NCBI RefSeq assembly: GCF_000354175.2
Contig: NC_022349.1
Coordinates: 1,140,001 to 1,172,000 of the forward strand
From: Vibrio alginolyticus NBRC 15630 = ATCC 17749
GTDB taxonomy: Bacteria > Pseudomonadota > Gammaproteobacteria > Enterobacterales > Vibrionaceae
Length of the DNA: 32,000 nucleotides
Direction: 5' to 3'
Below the pieces are notes generated by a model. The model saw only the letters and a list, made by a program, of their open reading frames with translations. It was not told where the DNA came from and did no database searches. How positions within the stretch are numbered: position 1 is the stretch's first letter; every line of letters starts with the position of its first letter. Below, piece by piece: positions 3,364 through 16,939 of the stretch. The translations under genes were made by a program, and so were the position numbers.

Positions 3364-4404
3364 TTACGCGGTTTCTCCCAGTTTAAACTTCATGGTTTGG
3401 ATGGATTGATGTTTTGCAGGCTGCTCGTAAACAGACTGAACAAGATAAAGAGGACGTTGCTTGGTCTCGACAAAAATGCGGCCAATGTATTCACCCAAAA
3501 GGCCAATCGACAGCAGTTGCACACCGCCCAACGCAAGTTGGACGACCATCATGGATGGGTAGCCAGTGACAGGCTCACCAAACACAACGGTTTTCATCAC
3601 AATGAATGCGCCATAGATAAAGGCACTGAACGCCACTAACGCACCGGCAAGTGTCGCTAAGCGCAAAGGACGAATGGAAAACGAGGTAATGCCGTCCATT
3701 GCAAGGCCAATCAGCTTGAGGTAGTTCCATTTGGTTTCACCACAGAAACGAGCGTCACGCTCAAACTGAACCGTCACTTGCTTGAAACCCGGCCAAGAAA
3801 AGATGCCTTTCATGTATCGGTTACGCTCTGGCAACGCATTGATGTGTTTAACCACTTTTGCGCTCAGTAGACGGAAATCGCCCACGTTCTCCGGCACATC
3901 CAATTTCGCCATGCTATTAAGCACTTTGTAAAAGCAAGCGGCCGAGAAGCGTTTGAACCAGGTTTCACCGTGGCGTTCACTGCGCTGCATGTTCACCACG
4001 TCATAACCTTCACGCCATTTTGATACCATTTGCGGGATCAACTCCGGTGGGTCTTGCAAGTCGGCATCAATCACAATCACCGCTTCACCTTGGCAGTGTT
4101 CCAGACCCGCACTCATGGCGGACTCTTTGCCAAAGTTACGGCTTAATGCAATACAACGAACGTCGCTAGAAGATTGAGAAAAGTTTTGCGCGATCATTAG
4201 GCTGTCATCTTTGCTGCCGTCGTCGACATAGACGATTTCGCAATGTTCTGGCATTTCATCCAAAACGGCGGCTAAACGACGATGAAATTCAGTCAAGACT
4301 TCTTGCTCGTTAAAGAATGGCACCACAACAGACAAAACTGTTTTAGGCTCAGTGTGTTGGCTCACCTTTGAAAAGGTTGCAGCGTGAATGTTGAAGGTTG
4401 ACAT
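3364..4404 (-). CDS. family-2 glycosyltransferase, polyprenyl-phosphate sugar transferase (GtrB/ArnC/DPM1-like)
   Basis: 346 aa with VVVPFFNEQE, YVDDGSKD, RNFGKESA and IDADLQDPPE motifs (GT-A fold, DXD) plus two C-terminal TM helices. Its stop lies 2 nt before the GT39 start. Confidence 0.8.
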   Translation of the reverse strand: MSTFNIHAATFSKVSQHTEPKTVLSVVVPFFNEQEVLTEFHRRLAAVLDEMPEHCEIVYVDDGSKDDSLMIAQNFSQSSSDVRCIALSRNFGKESAMSAGLEHCQGEAVIVIDADLQDPPELIPQMVSKWREGYDVVNMQRSERHGETWFKRFSAACFYKVLNSMAKLDVPENVGDFRLLSAKVVKHINALPERNRYMKGIFSWPGFKQVTVQFERDARFCGETKWNYLKLIGLAMDGITSFSIRPLRLATLAGALVAFSAFIYGAFIVMKTVVFGEPVTGYPSMMVVQLALGGVQLLSIGLLGEYIGRIFVETKQRPLYLVQSVYEQPAKHQSIQTMKFKLGETA

Positions 4405-6626: not shown

Positions 6627-7523
6627 ATGAAACTCTCAGAAAGTCCTATCACCCAACATAGCTTTAATGGGCACAAATTTTTCCTTAAACGTGACGACAT
6701 GCTCCACTCCCACTTTTCTGGGAACAAAGCACGTAAGTTTATGACGTTAATGGAAGAGCAAAATCCCGACATCACCACGTTAATAAGCTTTGGCTCCGCT
6801 CAATCTAATGCCATGTACTCGCTAGCGGCTCTCGCCCAGATTAAAGGTTGGGCATTTGAGTTTTATGTTCATCACATTCCATCTTGGCTAAAAAGCTCCC
6901 CCATCGGAAACTATCGCGGCGCTCTCGATTTGGGTATGAAAATCACCGCCATGCAAGACATCGGTAGCGAACTTCACCCTAGTGAATACATCCACCAGGT
7001 ACGAAGAGTAGATGAGTCGACATTGCTGATTCCAGAGGGTGGACGTTCCCACCTCGCTGAAGCTGGCATCAAACAGTTAGCACGAGAAATTCTTGATTGG
7101 ACGCGATTGAGAGGTAAAGAGCAGTTTACGGTCGCCCTGCCATCAGGTACTGGCACGACGGCTTTATATCTTCATAAACATTTAAGCCCACACGGCATAG
7201 AAGTGCTAACTTGCCCTTGCGTAGGCGATGCAGATTACTTAACTGAGCAGTTCAACCAGCTCGGTGAAAACAGCCACCCAACCATTTTAACCGTGCGCAA
7301 CAAACACCATTTTGGTCGCTTGTACGAAGAAGATTACATCACATGGAAAGCACTCTTTGAGCAAACCGACCTCGAATTTGACCTGTTATACGACCCGTAT
7401 ATGTGGCAATGCCTCACCCCTTGGTTGGAAGAGAACACAGATAAAACGGTGATTTATATTCACCAAGGCGGGTTACTTGGCAACGAGTCGATGTTGCCAA
7501 GATATCAACGAGAATTTGAATAG
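6627..7523 (+). CDS. PLP-dependent ACC deaminase / D-cysteine desulfhydrase-family enzyme
   Basis: The tracked ORF starts at 6489 but overlaps the kinase gene. The internal ATG at 6627 (MKLSESPITQH...) is the likelier start. The FLKRDDMLHSHFSGNKARKF motif contains the PLP lysine context typical of this family. Confidence 0.7.
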   Translation: MKLSESPITQHSFNGHKFFLKRDDMLHSHFSGNKARKFMTLMEEQNPDITTLISFGSAQSNAMYSLAALAQIKGWAFEFYVHHIPSWLKSSPIGNYRGALDLGMKITAMQDIGSELHPSEYIHQVRRVDESTLLIPEGGRSHLAEAGIKQLAREILDWTRLRGKEQFTVALPSGTGTTALYLHKHLSPHGIEVLTCPCVGDADYLTEQFNQLGENSHPTILTVRNKHHFGRLYEEDYITWKALFEQTDLEFDLLYDPYMWQCLTPWLEENTDKTVIYIHQGGLLGNESMLPRYQREFE

Positions 7524-10289: not shown

Positions 10290-11309
10290 ATGAAAACCTT
10301 ACGAATTTGGTTCGGCTGCTCTTTAGGGCTCGCGCTAAGCATGATCTTCGGTTGGTCTTACGGATTTTTTGCCATCATGATGCCGCTGTTTATATTGGGC
10401 AGAATGGACAACTTTAATCTTTCGGCTTTATTGATCGTGTTTTTCTCTGCGGTGTGGACAACCATACAAGCCACATTTTTGCTGGAATACTTGCAGTTTC
10501 ATCCAACATTAATGACCGTAGCCGTCGGAATCATGATGCTGTTCAAGTGCATTGCAATGATGAACCAGAAAACCTATTTGTTTGGTTACATGGGGCTGTT
10601 GGTGGGTTCAATTGTGTTGAATTTTGCCAGCTATAACTTCATGGATATTGAAGAGTTCAACGTCAACATGTGGGTGATGGCGTTCAGCAATATTTTTGTT
10701 TGCACATTCGCGTATTGGTTGTTCCCGGAGCCAAAGTCCCCCACCGAGCACATTGAGATGTCGACCCCAGTGAAAAGCGATATTGACTACATCAGCCAAG
10801 TTGCCATGGGTTGGGTAGTGGCGATGGCGGCGTTTATCGTATTCCAAGTAGCGGACTTATATGACTCGTTATCCGCACAAGCTTCCATTTTGATCATCCT
10901 AACCCCAATGACTTTAGCAGGCTCGCTCGCCATGGCAAAAATTCGCATCATCGGCACCGCACTAGGCTGCATCGCAGGGATGGCTGTTCAGCTGATATTG
11001 GGCAGTTGGTATGGGCATGCGCTACTCTTTTGGCTCGCCTTTACCATTGCAATGGGGCCATTCTGCTTGTGGCTCACAAAGGGGCAAATTAAAGCGGCTA
11101 TCGCGTTTTCTGCCATGTCTGCCCTATCGGTTCCGCTGACGACTTCATTGGTGCCAGAACAAAAAGACGCGTTCTTTTCGATCTTGTACCGTTTCAGCTC
11201 GATTTTCGTTGCTGTTCTGCTCACCGCGATGGTGATGTGGGTGGTGCATCACTGGATTCGTGTGATATTGCTAAAGCATCCTGAGATGAAGAACGTGGAG
11301 TTGAATTAA
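10290..11309 (+). CDS. FUSC-like / DUF2955-type inner-membrane protein, efflux partner of the HlyD protein
   Basis: 339-aa polytopic membrane ORF 10 nt downstream of the HlyD gene. The family call rests on architecture and recollection that such half-size FUSC-like proteins pair with HlyD genes. Confidence 0.55.
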   Translation: MKTLRIWFGCSLGLALSMIFGWSYGFFAIMMPLFILGRMDNFNLSALLIVFFSAVWTTIQATFLLEYLQFHPTLMTVAVGIMMLFKCIAMMNQKTYLFGYMGLLVGSIVLNFASYNFMDIEEFNVNMWVMAFSNIFVCTFAYWLFPEPKSPTEHIEMSTPVKSDIDYISQVAMGWVVAMAAFIVFQVADLYDSLSAQASILIILTPMTLAGSLAMAKIRIIGTALGCIAGMAVQLILGSWYGHALLFWLAFTIAMGPFCLWLTKGQIKAAIAFSAMSALSVPLTTSLVPEQKDAFFSILYRFSSIFVAVLLTAMVMWVVHHWIRVILLKHPEMKNVELN

Positions 11310-11342
11310 ATCTGGCCGAGGCTGGAAACGGGAAATGTATGT

Positions 11343-11375
11343 CGCTCACTTTACTGTGAGCGGCATTTTTATTTA
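11343..11375 (+). terminator. rho-independent terminator after the DUF2955-type gene
   Basis: CGCTCAC-tttact-GTGAGCG hairpin followed by gcatttttattt. Confidence 0.6.
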
Positions 11376-11380
11376 AAACG

Positions 11381-12850
11381 GTCACCCTGAACATTGAGGA
11401 ACGAGCGTGGTTCAGGATCTACTCACCGAGTGCTGTAAAGTTCTAAGGTTATCGCCATTTTCCAGTGAGTTGTTAGTAGATTCCTAGTCTCGTCTAGACT
11501 CGCTGGAATGACCAAAATTTGAATACAAGCCAAATAGTTGGGTATGTGAGTAACGTATCTCTTAACATCCGTCATCCTGAACAGCGAGGGACGAGCGTGG
11601 TTCAGGATCTACTCACCGACTGCTTTGAAGTGCGAAAGTTATCGTCATTTCCTAGCGAGCAGTAACCCGATTCCTAGTCTCACTTAAACTCGCTGGAATG
11701 ACGTTATCTTGAAACTGCTCTAATAACTAGGGTTGTGGCGAGCAATATATCTTCCAACATCCGTCATCCTGAACAGCGAGGGACGAAGTGATTCAGAATC
11801 TACTAATCACGTGCTTTGAAGTGCGAAAGTTCTCGTCATTTACCAGCGAGCTGTTATCAGATTCCTAGTCTCGTTTAAACTCGCTGGAATGACGCTATCT
11901 TGAAACTGCTCTAATAACTAGGGTTGTGGCGAGCAATATATCTTCCAACATCCGTCATCCTGAACAGCGAGGGACGAGCGTGATTCAGGAGCTACCCACC
12001 GGGTGCTTTGAGGTTCGTAGACTATCGCTATTTCCCAGCGAGTTGTAATCAGATTCCTAGTCTCGTCTAGACTCGCTGCAATGACGCTATCTTGAAACTG
12101 CTCTAATACCTAGGGTTGTGGCGAGCAATGCATTTTCCAACATCCGTCATCCTGAACAGCGAGGGACGAGCGTGGTTCAGGATCTACCCACCGACTGCTT
12201 TGAAGTGCGAAAGTTATCGTCATTTCCTAGCGAGCAGTAACCCGATTCCTAGTCTCACTTAAACTCGCTGGAATGACGTTATCTTGAAACTGCTCTAATA
12301 ACTAGGGTTGTGGCAAGCAATATACTTCCAACATCCGTCATCCTGAACAACGAGGGACGAGGTGATTCAGGAGCTACCCACCGAGTGCTTTGAAGTGCGA
12401 AAGTTATCGTCATTTCCTAGCGAGCTGTAATCAGATTCCTAGTCTCGTCTAGACTCGCTGGAATGACCCTATCTTGGAGCTGCTCAAATATCGGTTTTGT
12501 GGCGAGCGATGTATCTTCCAACATCCATCATCCTGAACAGCGAGGGACGAACGTGATTCAGGATCTACCCACCGAGTGCTTTGAAGTGCGAAAGTTATCG
12601 TCATTTCCTAGCGAGCAGTAATCAGATTCCTAGTCTCGTCTAGACTCGCTGGAATGACCCTCTCTTGGAGCAGATCCAATACCTAGGGTTGTGGCGAGCA
12701 ATGTATCTTCCAACATCCGTCATCCTGAACAGCGAGGGACGAGCGTGATTCAGGATCTACCCACCGAGTGCTTTGAAGTGCGGAAGTTATCGCTATTTCC
12801 TAGCGAGCAGTAAACCGACTCCTAGTCTCATTTAAACTCGCTAGAATGAC
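11381..12850. repeat. tandem array of eight ~190-bp hairpin-rich repeat units, unassigned family
   Basis: Unit starts at 11381, 11571, 11763, 11954, 12146, 12337, 12527 and 12719 (period 190-192 bp). Each unit has ATCCTGAAC-N17-GTTCAGGAT and CGTCATTTCCTAGCGAG-~29 nt-CTCGCTGGAATGACG hairpins plus a conserved ~58-bp linker. No ORF of 60 aa or more in any frame across 11310..12889. Confidence 0.95.
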
Positions 12851-12889
12851 CCTAATTTTAGTTCATGGTGCGGAGCCTAAGTATTAACA

Positions 12890-13924
12890 TCAACCCACCA
12901 ACTCTTTACGAATGATCTCCGCACCCGCACTTAACGCATTGAGCTTAGCGGTCGATACTTCAAGAGACAAAGGCGCCATACCACAGTTGGTACATGGGTA
13001 AAGCTTGTCGGCATCAACGTATTTCAATGCCTCTCGCAGTGTATTCGCCACTTCTTCTGGCGTTTCAATTTCGTTGGTTGCAACGTCAATCGCACCAACC
13101 ATCACTTTCTTACCGCGAATCAACTCAAGTAACTCAATAGGCACTCGTGAGTTATGACATTCGAGCGAGATAATATCGATATTCGACTGCTGCAATTTAG
13201 GGAATACTTCTTCGTATTGTCGCCATTCAGTGCCTAGCGTTTGCTTCCAATCCGTGTTCGCTTTGATGCCGTAGCCATAGCAGATATGCACCGCCGTTTC
13301 ACATTTCAGCCCTTCAATCGCACGCTCTAAACATGCAATGCCCCACTCGTTCACATCATCGAAAAACACATTGAACGCAGGCTCATCAAACTGAATGATG
13401 TCGACACCTGCAGCTTCAAGCTCTTTCGCTTCTTGATTGAGGATCTTTGCAAATTCCCAAGCCAGCTTTTCACGGCTACCGTAATGATCATCATAAAGCG
13501 TGTCGATCATCGTCATAGGGCCTGGCAGCGCCCACTTGATAGGTTGCTTAGTTTGCTGACGCAAGAACTTGGCATCTTCAACAAACACGGGCTTTGTGCG
13601 GCTCACTGGGCCAACCACAGTCGGAACACTTGCTTCATAACGGTTGCGAATGGTCACCGTTTTACGGTTTTCAAAATCTACACCGCTTAAATGCTCAATA
13701 AAGGTCGTCACAAAATGTTGGCGAGTTTGCTCGCCATCACTGACGATATCAACGCCTGCCAGTTCTTGTTCTTGCAAAGCGACACGTAACGCATCGCGTT
13801 TGCCATCAATCAGTTCTTCACCTTGCAGTTTCCACGGTGACCAAAGTTTTTCTGGTTCCGCTAGCCAAGAAGGTTTCGGCAAGCTGCCAGCCGTTGAAGT
13901 CGGTAATAGTGTTTTCATCGTCAT
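12890..13924 (-). CDS. mesD: short (core) MetE-family, cobalamin- and probably folate-independent methionine synthase (MesD-like)
   Basis: 344 aa, equivalent to the catalytic C-terminal half of MetE only. Zinc-ligand contexts are visible (AVHICYGYG, SLECHNS, YPCTNCGMAP). It sits directly downstream of a DUF1852 gene. The SD (AAAGGA) position favours the second ATG (13918) as the true start. Confidence 0.8.
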   Translation of the reverse strand: MTMKTLLPTSTAGSLPKPSWLAEPEKLWSPWKLQGEELIDGKRDALRVALQEQELAGVDIVSDGEQTRQHFVTTFIEHLSGVDFENRKTVTIRNRYEASVPTVVGPVSRTKPVFVEDAKFLRQQTKQPIKWALPGPMTMIDTLYDDHYGSREKLAWEFAKILNQEAKELEAAGVDIIQFDEPAFNVFFDDVNEWGIACLERAIEGLKCETAVHICYGYGIKANTDWKQTLGTEWRQYEEVFPKLQQSNIDIISLECHNSRVPIELLELIRGKKVMVGAIDVATNEIETPEEVANTLREALKYVDADKLYPCTNCGMAPLSLEVSTAKLNALSAGAEIIRKELVG

Positions 13925-13948: not shown

Positions 13949-14923
13949 TTACGCGTAATTTGCAGACCATTGTTCAAGCACAGATTGATAAGGTTTGATG
14001 AAATGCTCCTCGGCAAATTTCCCTTGTTCAACTGCCAGTTGGCTGCGCTCTTCTCGGTCGTAAACGATTTGAGTTAGCGAGTGGTCTAGGTTTTTTAGGT
14101 TTGGCTGGTAGCAATTACCGGCAACCGCATTGGCATTATAAATTTCTGGTCGGTAAATCTTCTGGAATGTCTCCATCGTACTTATCGTGCTGATAAGCTC
14201 TAGGTTTGAATAGTCGTTCAACAAGTCACCGAAGAAGTAGAATGCCAACGGTGCAACACTGTTGGGTGGCATAAAGTAGCGCACCTGTAAGCCCATCTTT
14301 TTAAAGTACTGCTCAGTCAACGAAGATTCGTTCGGCTGATATTCAAAGCCCAAAACAGGATGTTGGTTTTCGGTGCGTCGGTATACCTTGTTGTCCGATA
14401 CACTCAGACAAATCACCGGCAGCTTTTTGAAATGCTGTTTGTAAGACTCAGAATTAACGAAAGCTTTGAACAGTTTGCCATGCAAATCACCGAAGTTCGC
14501 TGGGATGCTGAACTGTGGCTGGTTTTTGTTGTGGTCCAACAGCAAAACGCTAAAGTCGTAATCACGCACGTATGAAGAGAAGTTGTTGCCCACTATGCCT
14601 TCAATGCGCTCGTTAGTGTTGTGGTCAACAATGTTGGTTTTGAGCACTTCAATCGATGGGAATGCTTCTCCACTACCTTGGATATCCATATCAACAGAGA
14701 TGATTTCAAGTTCAACTGAGTAGCGGTCACCTTGCGCGTTATCCCAATATGCCAACGCATTAAAACGATTGTCGATCATTCGGAGTGCATTGCGCAGATT
14801 CTCTCGGCGGTAGTTTCCGCGAGCCAGATTAGCAAAATTGGTAGTGATTCGCGTGTTGTCTGATGGTTGGTAATTCTCATCAAAGCGAATGCTTTTGATA
14901 GCAAATGTGAAATCGTTATTCAT
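13949..14923 (-). CDS. mesX: DUF1852-family protein (MesX-like, putative oxygenase partner of MesD)
   Basis: 324-aa soluble ORF 24 nt upstream of the short MetE-like gene. The assignment rests on this conserved pairing and my recollection of DUF1852 size and composition. It was not verified by alignment. Confidence 0.6.
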   Translation of the reverse strand: MNNDFTFAIKSIRFDENYQPSDNTRITTNFANLARGNYRRENLRNALRMIDNRFNALAYWDNAQGDRYSVELEIISVDMDIQGSGEAFPSIEVLKTNIVDHNTNERIEGIVGNNFSSYVRDYDFSVLLLDHNKNQPQFSIPANFGDLHGKLFKAFVNSESYKQHFKKLPVICLSVSDNKVYRRTENQHPVLGFEYQPNESSLTEQYFKKMGLQVRYFMPPNSVAPLAFYFFGDLLNDYSNLELISTISTMETFQKIYRPEIYNANAVAGNCYQPNLKNLDHSLTQIVYDREERSQLAVEQGKFAEEHFIKPYQSVLEQWSANYA

Positions 14924-15142
14924 CGTGAGTTGGTATCCTATTTCCTTAGATAAAGCAGACTTTTCCTAACTCTGTGCATGGGGACATTTTTTGTTTTTGG
15001 TTTTCCCAATCGTTAGGTTGCACAGCGCTTACGACGAACGGTTAGTGCAAAAATGACCGTCGCAGTGCCTAACACCAGAGCAGTCCTTTTTTTATACTTG
15101 CTTCACGAGTTAAGTAATATTGGTATTGTTTCACATTGAACA

Positions 15143-15155
15143 TGAAGGAAATTCA
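15143..15155. promoter_or_regulatory. MetR-type box upstream of the mesX-mesD operon
   Basis: TGAAGGAAATTCA fits the MetR consensus TGAA-N2-(A/T)-N2-TTCA exactly. It lies ~220 bp upstream of the mesX start codon. Confidence 0.4.
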
Positions 15156-16021
15156 TAGTGGCAGTTCCAACCCTGAGAGAGCTATCGTAGATACTGTTTT
15201 TCATTGACACCAATACACGTAACTTGGCGAGCATATTGCCAATATGTGTAATTAAGAAACGGATAAGAGATTAGCAGTACGTAAACCAGTTTAAGCCGAG
15301 AAAACGCATTGTATGAACAAGGCACCAACTGGAATATAGGACGACGTAACTTAAATAGCACTTTTCACACTCCATCGTTTATTCAAGCATTCGTTTAATT
15401 AGAAGTACGTTACATTTTATATTCTCGAAACATGATTATTTAATTATCTTATTTATTTCTTTTTCTATCTTTACCATCTTAAACGTAAAGTTTAATCCCC
15501 TGCTGTAAAAGCACATATAACTTCATACACGAACATGACAACTTCATTGACGGACTTTATCACTAAACTATTACATTAAGCTCTAAAAAAACAACAACAA
15601 AAAAACATAAGCCGCTGTTTTAATTTGAATTAAAACCATAAACCCGAGATAACCACATAACGATACTTTACTTAGTTTGGTATAACAAAAACCCTAAAAA
15701 TAACATGGCTAACATTTATAAAATTCACTTTTATCAATAAAAAATCTAAATATAACATTAGAAAATTAAAATTAAGCAATAACTTAAAAAGACAAGACTT
15801 AATAACCAAATTCTTATTTATTATAGTTGAGAGGTGAATTTAAAAACTATGAGACATTAATCCCACGAATCTATCCTTTTTCTTTTTTTAATAAAACACA
15901 AGATGCACTATTTCACCGCTCATTTATTGAGCTTGAATTTATAACCTGTCCATAATTATAAAGTGCCCATCAAGATAGTTTAAAACAAAAGTCTTTATGG
16001 GCTGACTAATAGGAAACAATA

Positions 16022-16939
16022 ATGGAAAAACAGCATCTTTCCGCGAGTATTATCGCACTCGCTTTACTTGGTTCTTTAGCACCAGCACATGCTGAAGATA
16101 CATTAAAATCTTACACTTCGACGTTGCTTCAGCTTGATGATGGTGATGCACGCTCGAAAAAAATCCGCTTAATTTATTCTTTAGAAAATGTCTGGAACCA
16201 ATCTTTACTACCAAATGGCGCTAAAGAAGCTAAGTTGATCCTAAATGGCGGCTCTGGCTTCGACATGACTAATGTTCCAAACAAAGAACAAATCTATGGT
16301 TTTGCCACTGGGGGAGATTACCGTTACACCGTTCCAACGGCTTTTAAGCTGGCACTGAGCTATTTAAATGGCGCCCCTTTACGCCACATGAGCCATGCTC
16401 CAGAAAACACCATTGCAACGGCATCTGTCAGTGAGTCGCTAGATTTTAACCTTGGATTCAGTGCTTCTACTTCTCCAAATATTAGTGGGGGAATCTCCTG
16501 GAGCAACCGTGTAACGTACGACCAGCCAGAGTTTCAAACGGTTGCCGATTTTAACCAAGCTAACGAAAGCATTAATTGGTTAATTGAAAACAAGACTATC
16601 CGCCATAATACGCCAGCTAAAGACTGGTTATTGTATCGTTGGACCAGTTGTGACATGGGTAATTTGATTGATTACAATGAGTTACCTGTCGTTATGCGTT
16701 CAGATTTTAAACCACAAGTCGGCGTCGTATATAGAAAAAATGACATTCAAGATGGCCTAGATACATCAGAGGTCAAGCTGGTTGCTGGTTGGCGAAAAAC
16801 CAATTACTACTTTGGTCGCGACTGGTGTAGCTGGTATACCACACCAGAAAATACCTGGAAGAAAAATCGTGATAGCAGTCAATGGACAGAGACTAGCCGA
16901 GCCGTAACTATCTCTTGGAATGACGATCTCTACCACTAA
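16022..16939 (+). CDS. leukocidin / alpha-hemolysin-family beta-barrel pore-forming toxin, stand-alone form
   Basis: 305 aa with a Sec signal peptide (ALLGSLAPAHA|EDT). Segments align by eye to S. aureus Hla: SWSNRVTYDQPEFQT vs SIGHTLKYVQPDFKT, SDFKPQVGVVYRK vs SPDFATVITMDRK, and WTETSRAVTISWNDDLY vs WTDRSSERYKIDWEKEEM. There is a Gly/Ser-rich alternating stem segment, SESLDFNLGFSASTSPNISGGISW. Confidence 0.85.
   Translation: MEKQHLSASIIALALLGSLAPAHAEDTLKSYTSTLLQLDDGDARSKKIRLIYSLENVWNQSLLPNGAKEAKLILNGGSGFDMTNVPNKEQIYGFATGGDYRYTVPTAFKLALSYLNGAPLRHMSHAPENTIATASVSESLDFNLGFSASTSPNISGGISWSNRVTYDQPEFQTVADFNQANESINWLIENKTIRHNTPAKDWLLYRWTSCDMGNLIDYNELPVVMRSDFKPQVGVVYRKNDIQDGLDTSEVKLVAGWRKTNYYFGRDWCSWYTTPENTWKKNRDSSQWTETSRAVTISWNDDLYH

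Follow-up and report, generated by a model that had tools for sequence, protein, structure and literature searches.

In the BIME-2 class of bacterial interspersed mosaic elements (BIMEs), pairs of repetitive extragenic palindromes (REPs) in alternating orientation are joined by conserved linkers and tandemly iterated, and the BIMEs of Escherichia coli bind integration host factor or gyrase. Clusters of REP dimers reiterated together with flanking DNA have been described (Di Nocera et al. 2013, PMC3733652), and no transposase is known for the CGTC-type REPs (PMC3733652). Enterobacterial repetitive intergenic consensus (ERIC) sequences have been reported in Vibrionaceae (PMC10969869). Vibrio itself is not mentioned in the surveys of REPs, BIMEs and REP-associated tyrosine transposases (RAYTs) that were examined, PMC3733652 included. 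The present work concerns a tandem array of eight hairpin-rich units of about 190 bp in Vibrio alginolyticus NBRC 15630 = ATCC 17749, located in a stretch of 32,000 nucleotides (contig NC_022349.1, positions 1,140,001 to 1,172,000), hereafter referred to as the window. With a probability of roughly 0.6, the array is considered to be a REP-dimer or BIME-like palindromic cluster (equivalently, a small MITE, or miniature inverted-repeat transposable element, with imperfect terminal inverted repeats, TIRs, of about 40 bp), seeded at this site and expanded or contracted by recombination. Its unit belongs to an interspersed intergenic repeat family of Vibrio that is apparently uncatalogued.

Tandem Repeats Finder reported one strong tandem array at 11381-12854, with a period of 192, 7.7 copies, 86% matches and a score of 2013, and also returned a higher-order period of 383 bp. 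The starts of the eight units (Table 1) were located with nhmmer and regular expressions, all units being matched by nhmmer at E<=3e-45, and the pattern of the first hairpin (hairpin 1) gave five matches at three mismatches or fewer against none in 100 shuffles. A unit of the window measures about 191 bp and is composed of a core of about 132 bp and a linker of about 58 bp. The longest open reading frame (ORF) of the array encodes 52 aa, and indels between units are such that the frames are not kept. The left flanking gene is transcribed from the plus strand and the right one, a MetE-like gene designated mesD, from the minus strand, and the region is therefore convergent. The preliminary description of this DNA, based on its letters and ORFs, had proposed the head-to-tail arrangement of eight units at these starts, the partition into core and linker, the ORF-free convergent gap and a terminator just ahead of the array, all of which were confirmed, the last as a hairpin at 11339-11366. 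The distance between the array and the mesD stop codon, given there as 39 nt, was measured as about 36-37 nt from the end of the last module. No further copies or remnants of the modules were found elsewhere in the 32-kb window, for instance at the borders of the LysR-HlyD-DUF2955 block that precedes the array.

The core consists of an inverted pair of related hairpin modules, designated A (GTCATYCTGAA...TTCAGRATCTAC) and B (AGATTCC...GGAATGAC). Module sizes are 35-42 bp, with stems of 8 bp in A and 7 bp in B, and the core spans 97-135 bp. The consensus of module A reads (C)GTC-ATYCTGAA-loop-TTCAGRAT-CTAY, the loop being a conserved sequence of 19 nt (CAGYGAGGNAYGARYGTGA), and its fuller form, (C)GTC-ATYCTGAA-C AGYGAGGNAYGARYGTG A-TTCAGRAT-CTAY, is near-invariant throughout the subfamilies. 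Two CGAG-containing repeats spaced by about one helical turn can be read in this loop. The consensus of module B is NNAG-ATTCY(T)AG-loop-CTRGAAT-GAC(G). The inner tag is CTAC or CTAT in about equal shares (GTAG or ATAG on the opposite strand), and the tag beside module B is defined only as NYAG. Comparison of A with the reverse complement of B yielded scores of 25-36.5 for a shuffle mean of 14 (equalled by 0-6 of 3000 shuffles), and the direct orientation scored 9-11, under the shuffle mean. The middle region separating A from B, about 55 nt long, keeps its length while its sequence diverges between subfamilies, and is reduced to about 20 nt in a metagenome-assembled genome (MAG) and in V. salilacus. 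Linkers are uniform in length and sequence within a site and different between sites (12, 19, 34, 45, 58 and about 128 nt). These linkers give rise to periods from 117 to 262 bp: the mesD site has one of about 190 bp in every strain, three neighbouring sites have about 167 bp, and the remaining ones about 180, 145, 117 and 262 bp. The same plan, an inverted pair of related palindromic modules of about 40 bp, characterises REP dimers, REPINs (REP doublets forming hairpins) and BIMEs, as well as MITEs whose TIRs are long and imperfect.

The arrays with the period of about 262 bp (L023 3241-4065, L032 7-552 and L040 11688-12448; L numbers designate loci) display a third module within the linker (CGTCATTCCCTAGAGCGAAGAATGAGGGAGTAGGGAATCT). 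It is oriented like A and carries a B-like stem (ATTCCCTA/TAGGGAAT), so that these units are trimers. A pair of modules of this third type, without any A, is present at L040 5042-5181.

Other Vibrionaceae had been proposed in the preliminary description as one place to look for related units, and pattern scans did uncover a family there. Among reference genomes, a degenerate pattern of the first hairpin retrieved eight loci, which belong to V. rotiferianus, V. diabolicus, V. salilacus, three Vibrio sp. and one MAG. With a slightly wider pattern of module A, 33 loci were retrieved from metagenome contigs, the viral contigs of IMG/VR yielding none. Across all loci, 141 more copies of module A were counted by regular expression in 53 groups, most of which (34 of 53) are tandem with 2-8 copies. 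Clustering of the flanking ORFs distributed the 42 loci other than the window over at least 15 distinct chromosomal sites, among them the 3' end of mesD, glpX/HTH regulator, a DUF805-like gene, menA/hslU, edd, the UDP-sugar epimerase/coaD junction, hisIE, eda and gcvH/gcvP. With the strict pattern, and with several loci sharing assemblies, 4-5 distinct sites and about 12-21 modules were found per assembly. The neighbours of the element are ordinary housekeeping genes. Similarity searches of the element against plasmids, phages and IMG/VR viral contigs remained without match, as did a blastn search against 5,426 E. coli genomes. The earlier impression that the unit matches no recognised repeat or RNA family was borne out by the lack of any Rfam match and by a literature search for a described Vibrio repeat family, literal strings of the module sequence included, which returned nothing relevant and does not in itself prove that the family is undescribed.

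All copies are intergenic. The gene arrangement is convergent at 9 of the 15 sites, co-directional at five and divergent at one, a convergent excess with a binomial p = 0.004 against an expectation of 25%; at the co-directional sites, the element is antisense in three cases and sense in two. In three cases (the window and loci L002 and L027), a terminator belonging to the co-oriented upstream gene immediately precedes the array, and no terminator separates the array from the convergent gene. The left flank of the mesD site varies between lineages: it is formed by the LysR-HlyD-DUF2955 block in the window, by a GNAT gene and a lipoprotein gene in V. rotiferianus (L004), and by the same genes with an additional MarR-EamA block in Vibrio sp. 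WZ-1 (L008). The array is therefore situated at a breakpoint of synteny and gene content.

Several local observations can be added here. In Vibrio sp. WZ-1, the MarR and EamA-transporter block lies between a solo element (L008 1579-1720) and the array (3772-4291), and V. rotiferianus displays the array (L004 5399-5867) without this block; the element may mediate this insertion or deletion through recombination between copies. A solo element in sense orientation lies within the glycine-cleavage operon between gcvH and gcvP (L006 2901-3015), where it must belong to the polycistronic mRNA. A second, unrelated palindromic repeat, rich in CTAG (e.g. GGAACTCGTCTCTAGGAACTAGTATCTAGAAACTAGGCACTC), adjoins the element at several sites (L001 around 2040-2110 on the minus strand, L003 7060-7110, L005 1320-1350) and may represent another family of Vibrio intergenic repeats.

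The number of copies at the mesD site differs between genomes, with eight in the window, five at L028, four at L029 and at L038, three at L024 and at L008, and two to three at L004, the values taken from short-read assemblies being possibly underestimates; the precise figure for the window could itself reflect an estimate made in assembly. A V. diabolicus contig (L007) which is 94% identical to the window over 8 kb starts inside the mesD-site array (L007 1-239), and this break indicates that such repeats interrupt short-read assemblies and render the copy numbers of draft genomes unreliable. Unit 1 is 75-77% identical to the other units of the window, which are 85-98% identical among themselves. 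It is also 100% identical to the first unit of the L029 array, and its linker type recurs in other strains and species, units 2-7 carrying a lineage-specific linker variant. The identity with L029 designates unit 1 as a conserved older unit type and not as a by-product of homogenisation. The edge unit is the most diverged, as had been noticed in the preliminary description, for another reason than the homogenisation invoked there. Most units of the window are in fact closer to their counterparts in L029 or L028 (97-100%) than to the units of their own array, and the four L029 units have orthologues at 97-100% among the eight of the window; judged from these identities, the window units are not strongly homogenised. 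Units 2 and 5 are 98% identical, and units 3 and 6 share one deletion of 1 nt in the loop, both of which suggest a recent duplication of several units within the array. Loss can be followed at the epimerase/coaD site, where L003 contains two units (6807-7046) and L005 a single one (1212-1310) that is chimeric, its module A being that of the first L003 unit and its middle and module B those of the second. This chimera is a direct footprint of the loss of a unit by recombination between units.

Secondary structure was analysed on an alignment of 107 distinct cores, with 500 shuffles as control. In the local hairpins of A and B, 96.5% of the cells are paired, a proportion that falls to 23-44% once the partners are displaced by 1-3 columns, and 99 cells show a double change, for 33 +/- 5.5 in the shuffles, none of which equalled the observed value. 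The covarying pairs are 6-36 in module A (UA 72, CG 32) and 111-132 (CG 58, UA 43), 113-131 (AU 94, GC 12) and 114-130 (GC 87, AU 12) in module B. Variants of the B stem found outside the alignment (ATTCCGGA/TCCGGAAT, ATTCCGTA/TACGGAAT and ATTCCCTA/TAGGGAAT) point in the same direction. Such compensatory changes argue that the local hairpins of both modules are under selection. In the window, hairpin 1 mostly comprises 8 bp, extended to 9 bp in units 1, 2 and 5.

A long-range stem joining A to B in the manner of a REPIN was rejected. It is predicted by RNAalifold, with 92.7% of cells paired, but shows no covariation, 474 of the 500 shuffles being as good, and in 34 copies it is interrupted at column 6; the complementarity of A and B merely follows from their inverted relationship. 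In the longer hairpin CGTCATTTCCTAGCGAG...CTCGCTGGAATGACG, Watson-Crick pairing amounts to 87% over the 33 copies of the mesD site, with one-sided changes only, and to 36% at the corresponding columns of the other subfamilies. The structural proposals of the preliminary description fared unequally in this respect. Its hairpin 1 is real, and the covariation it had suggested looking for was detected, at the above four pairs of the local A and B stems. Its longer hairpin exists, within the mesD-site subfamily and devoid of compensatory changes. The two mutually exclusive folds proposed for it represent too strong a claim, as the motif involved is restricted to that same subfamily and has no covariation support.

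Sequence constraint was estimated by comparison of the window with V. rotiferianus and Vibrio sp. WZ-1. Module A of the positionally orthologous unit is identical at 41 of 42 positions (98%). The identity of mesD amounts to 84-85% over all nucleotides and to 50-53% at four-fold degenerate sites, that of the non-repeat spacer beside the array to 67-69%, that of the linker to 69-74% and that of the middle to 74-81%. Over the 107 cores, column identity reaches 90% in the loop of A, 94% in its stem and 61% in the middle. Module A is preserved by a sequence-specific agent, the candidates being a partner protein, selection at the level of the element accompanied by gene conversion, or both.

Taken together, these results describe a non-coding interspersed palindromic dimer forming site-specific tandem arrays of variable copy number, mainly at the 3' ends of genes. 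The element was seeded at a limited number of chromosomal sites, in most cases where convergent genes have their 3' ends. Everywhere it was reiterated head to tail along with a piece of the local flank, the linker, and the gain and loss of copies sets strains and species apart. The element may plausibly belong to the REP superfamily. Units would be gained and lost by homologous recombination or slippage between units, and the element would originally have been dispersed by a hairpin-recognising enzyme of the HUH/RAYT or IS200 type, or by another transposase, encoded elsewhere. The arrays would not constitute independent genes and would be transcribed solely by read-through. Their hairpins may provide structures at 3' ends or barriers that separate convergent transcription units, serve as protein-binding sites, or do both, a role which would explain the almost invariant module A. 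The amplified non-autonomous mobile element, one of three options listed in the preliminary description, is favoured here, given the presence of the element at 15 or more sites and its inverted, related end modules.

A number of observations weigh against the BIME-like interpretation. No transposase of any kind is encoded within about 5 kb of the 42 loci, and a tblastn search for a RAYT with E. coli RayT gave a best E-value of 0.29 in these loci and the window. No empty site is found among the loci, and no target-site duplication or insertion event is therefore demonstrated. Sites are few (about 4-5 per genome with the strict pattern) compared with the hundreds of the classical REPs, and the tags are only partly REP-like, with CGTC ahead of module A in about 77% of the flank types that occur most often. 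The sequences aligned are related, so that the 99 double-change cells amount to few independent events, although each of these falls where it should. Finally, the near-invariance of module A at orthologous sites exceeds what is expected of a decaying selfish element and points to a constraint, exerted by the host or by a partner protein, which the BIME-like interpretation has to assume.

This last point is the basis of the strongest alternative, in which the arrays are maintained by the host as multi-site platforms, their modules being putative recognition sites, in the form of duplex, cruciform or RNA hairpin, of a dedicated sequence-specific protein. Its variants include a boundary or insulator between convergent operons, an element of nucleoid organisation or topology, and a sponge titrating or positioning a protein. 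The contrast between module A (98%) and the nearby non-coding DNA (67-74%) or synonymous sites (about 50%) speaks in its favour, and so do a loop of A conserved like its stem, the helical spacing of the two CGAG-containing repeats, the retention of arrays by several species at orthologous positions, and an absence of strand bias in wobble pairs (see below) that is compatible with a role at the DNA level. However, no candidate protein is encoded beside the arrays, the number of copies at one site is free to vary between 1 and 8, the drift of middles and linkers proceeds at the background rate, and gene conversion among copies could produce the same conservation. This alternative is accordingly regarded as unlikely. 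A related proposal, in which the hairpin modules, foremost module A with its invariant loop of 19 nt, are putative sites that the host maintains by selection for binding of a dedicated partner and the arrays are functional platforms, is entertained at fairly low probability; as partner, a protein binding DNA or RNA can be envisaged, or a domesticated HUH enzyme whose gene lies elsewhere in the genome. If this proposal were true, the arrays would be insulators between convergent operons or titration arrays and not decaying selfish DNA. The protein-binding satellite listed among the options of the preliminary description is of this kind, and a hint in its direction comes from how extremely module A is conserved.

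The third of these options, an array of structured non-coding RNA genes, can be stated either as a precursor cut into units of about 190 nt or as a long protein-sponge repeat RNA of the CsrB type. Compensatory changes do keep the stems, GGA occurs in the loop of hairpin A in all eight units of the window, and read-through transcription is likely on the minus strand, which has no intrinsic terminator between mesD and the array. On the plus strand, an intrinsic terminator is located directly upstream of the array. The units have neither a promoter-like nor a terminator-like site of their own, Rfam gave no match at the gathering score and nothing relevant at E<=10, the CsrB/C families included, and the folding z-scores of whole units are weak, from -1.1 to -1.8, hairpin A alone having one of about -2. 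Mismatches of the local stems comprise 19 G.T and 31 A.C (p = 0.12), and in the absence of strand preference nothing marks the RNA of one strand as the selected form. The orientation relative to co-directional neighbours is likewise mixed, as reported above. The GGA is not conserved family-wide, where the position reads GAGGNACGAG (N = any base); this variability, with the lack of a CsrB/C match, also led to the rejection of a CsrA sponge. An RNA gene array is thus judged quite improbable.

The same low likelihood is attributed to an ordinary MITE, that is, a deletion derivative of an insertion sequence with a DDE transposase and the same TIRs of about 40 bp, whose arrays would result from repeated adjacent insertion. 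The imperfect TIRs of 36-42 bp, a size of about 100-135 bp, well under 500 bp, and the intergenic location at many sites are those of such an element. Nevertheless, an A...B pair encloses a transposase in none of the 42 loci, and each end is a hairpin kept by covariation, for which ordinary DDE-type TIRs have no need. Linkers that are constant per site and different between sites fit the tandem duplication of element and flank, and not independent insertions. An assembly artefact is hardly credible, for although tandem repeats can be mis-built by short-read assemblers, same-site arrays are present in independent assemblies or isolates (V. rotiferianus L004, Vibrio sp. WZ-1 L008, L024, L028, L029 and L038) and the units differ mutually by 2-25%, which anchors the assembly.

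Several other identities were examined and set aside. The attC sites of integrons follow RYYYAAC ... GTTRRRY, whereas the stem ends here read CCTGAAC ... (A/G)TTCAGG, GTT being replaced by ATT in 64 of 80 unique copies. In a CRISPR array, unique spacers would be present; here the whole unit of 190 bp is repeated and the linkers are mutual copies. Repeats of type III toxin-antitoxin systems were discarded on the same lack of unique spacers and on the housekeeping nature of the flanking genes. A scan of the array for tRNA and tmRNA found none.

The coordinates of the array, its units and its neighbours are collected in Table 1.

Table 1. Location of the repeat units and flanking features in the window
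Feature	Coordinates	Strand	Remarks
Whole tandem array	11381..12858	+	7 full units and a terminal core without linker (Tandem Repeats Finder, nhmmer)
Unit 1	11381..11570	+	module A 11381-11420, module B 11478-11512, linker 11513-11570 (older type common to other strains)
Unit 2	11571..11762	+	module A 11571-11610, module B 11668-11702, linker 11703-11762
Unit 3	11763..11953	+	module A 11763-11801 (1-nt loop deletion), module B 11859-11893
Unit 4	11954..12145	+	module A 11954-11993, module B 12051-12085
Unit 5, near copy of unit 2	12146..12336	+	module A 12146-12185, module B 12243-12277
Unit 6	12337..12526	+	module A 12337-12375 (loop shortened by 1 nt, like that of unit 3), module B 12433-12467
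Unit 7	12527..12718	+	module A 12527-12566, module B 12624-12658
Unit 8, terminal core only, without linker	12719..12858	+	module A 12719-12758, diverged module B ~12811-12854
Intrinsic terminator of the upstream DUF2955/FUSC gene, directly ahead of the array	11339..11376	+	11 pairs, 6 G-C, then T-run; hairpin 11339-11366
Left flanking gene, DUF2955 / FUSC_2, last of the LysR-HlyD-DUF2955 block	10290..11309	+	flank varies between species
Right flanking gene, MetE-like Meth_synt_2 (mesD)	12890..13924	-	anchors the site and is conserved at every orthologous locus
MesX, adjoining mesD	13949-14923

Two further features of the window can be mentioned. A gene of the leukocidin/hemolysin family (16022-16939; Pfam PF07968, E = 9e-14) adjoins the pair formed by mesX and the MetE-like gene (window 13949-16939), and an 18-bp tandem repeat (AGCAAACCTTGCCAACGA) is present in 2.3 copies at 1891-1932.

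The kind of object described here is familiar in the study of bacterial repeats, and its surprising property is the near-invariance of module A. A defined Vibrio family with a clear grammar of modules would fill a gap in the surveys of REPs, RAYTs and BIMEs. In practical terms, the family would explain contig breaks and offer a marker of variable copy number at conserved sites. A near-invariant module in diverged surroundings also makes a good system in which to study the upkeep of repeats without an evident RAYT.

Among the systems with which the element can be compared, the ERIC or intergenic repeat unit (IRU) sequences and other MITE-like intergenic repeats of enterobacteria or Vibrionaceae (imperfect palindromes of 127 bp) resemble it in size class, imperfect palindromy, intergenic location and transcription by read-through. 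ERIC differs in sequence, and its copies are dispersed singletons whereas the Vibrio element forms tandem arrays. In contrast to REPINs (Bertels and Rainey 2011), the long hairpin between A and B has no covariation support. The GTAG/CGTC REPs (PMC3733652) are closer: the Vibrio modules share with them a size of 35-42 bp, stems of 7-8 bp, an unpaired CGTC outside the stem (in about three quarters of the A modules), a suggestive GTAG-like tetranucleotide inside, dimers with tags in mirror orientation as the basic unit, and clusters built by repeating the dimer along with flanking DNA; the lack of a known transposase is a further resemblance to the CGTC type. The loops of the described CGTC families, however, measure 4-5 nt, the inner tag of the Vibrio element takes the form GTAG in no more than about half of the copies, and no RAYT is found nearby. 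The closest parallel is provided by BIME-2 of E. coli, with its inverted pairs of related palindromic modules, inner spacer, outer linker and head-to-tail reiteration, its extragenic location mostly at the 3' ends of genes, and its variable copy number. The preliminary description had considered the unit too long and too composite for a REP or BIME; this objection does not hold, since the unit is a dimer of palindromic modules of 35-42 bp with a linker, which is the BIME plan. The Vibrio units (117-262 bp) are nevertheless two to three times longer than those of BIME-2 and have no sequence similarity to them, their hairpin loops are large (17-19 nt) and conserved in sequence, far fewer sites were seen per genome, and the REP types Y, Z1 and Z2 and the linker motifs of E. 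coli are not matched. The element thus behaves as a BIME does without belonging to the family of E. coli.

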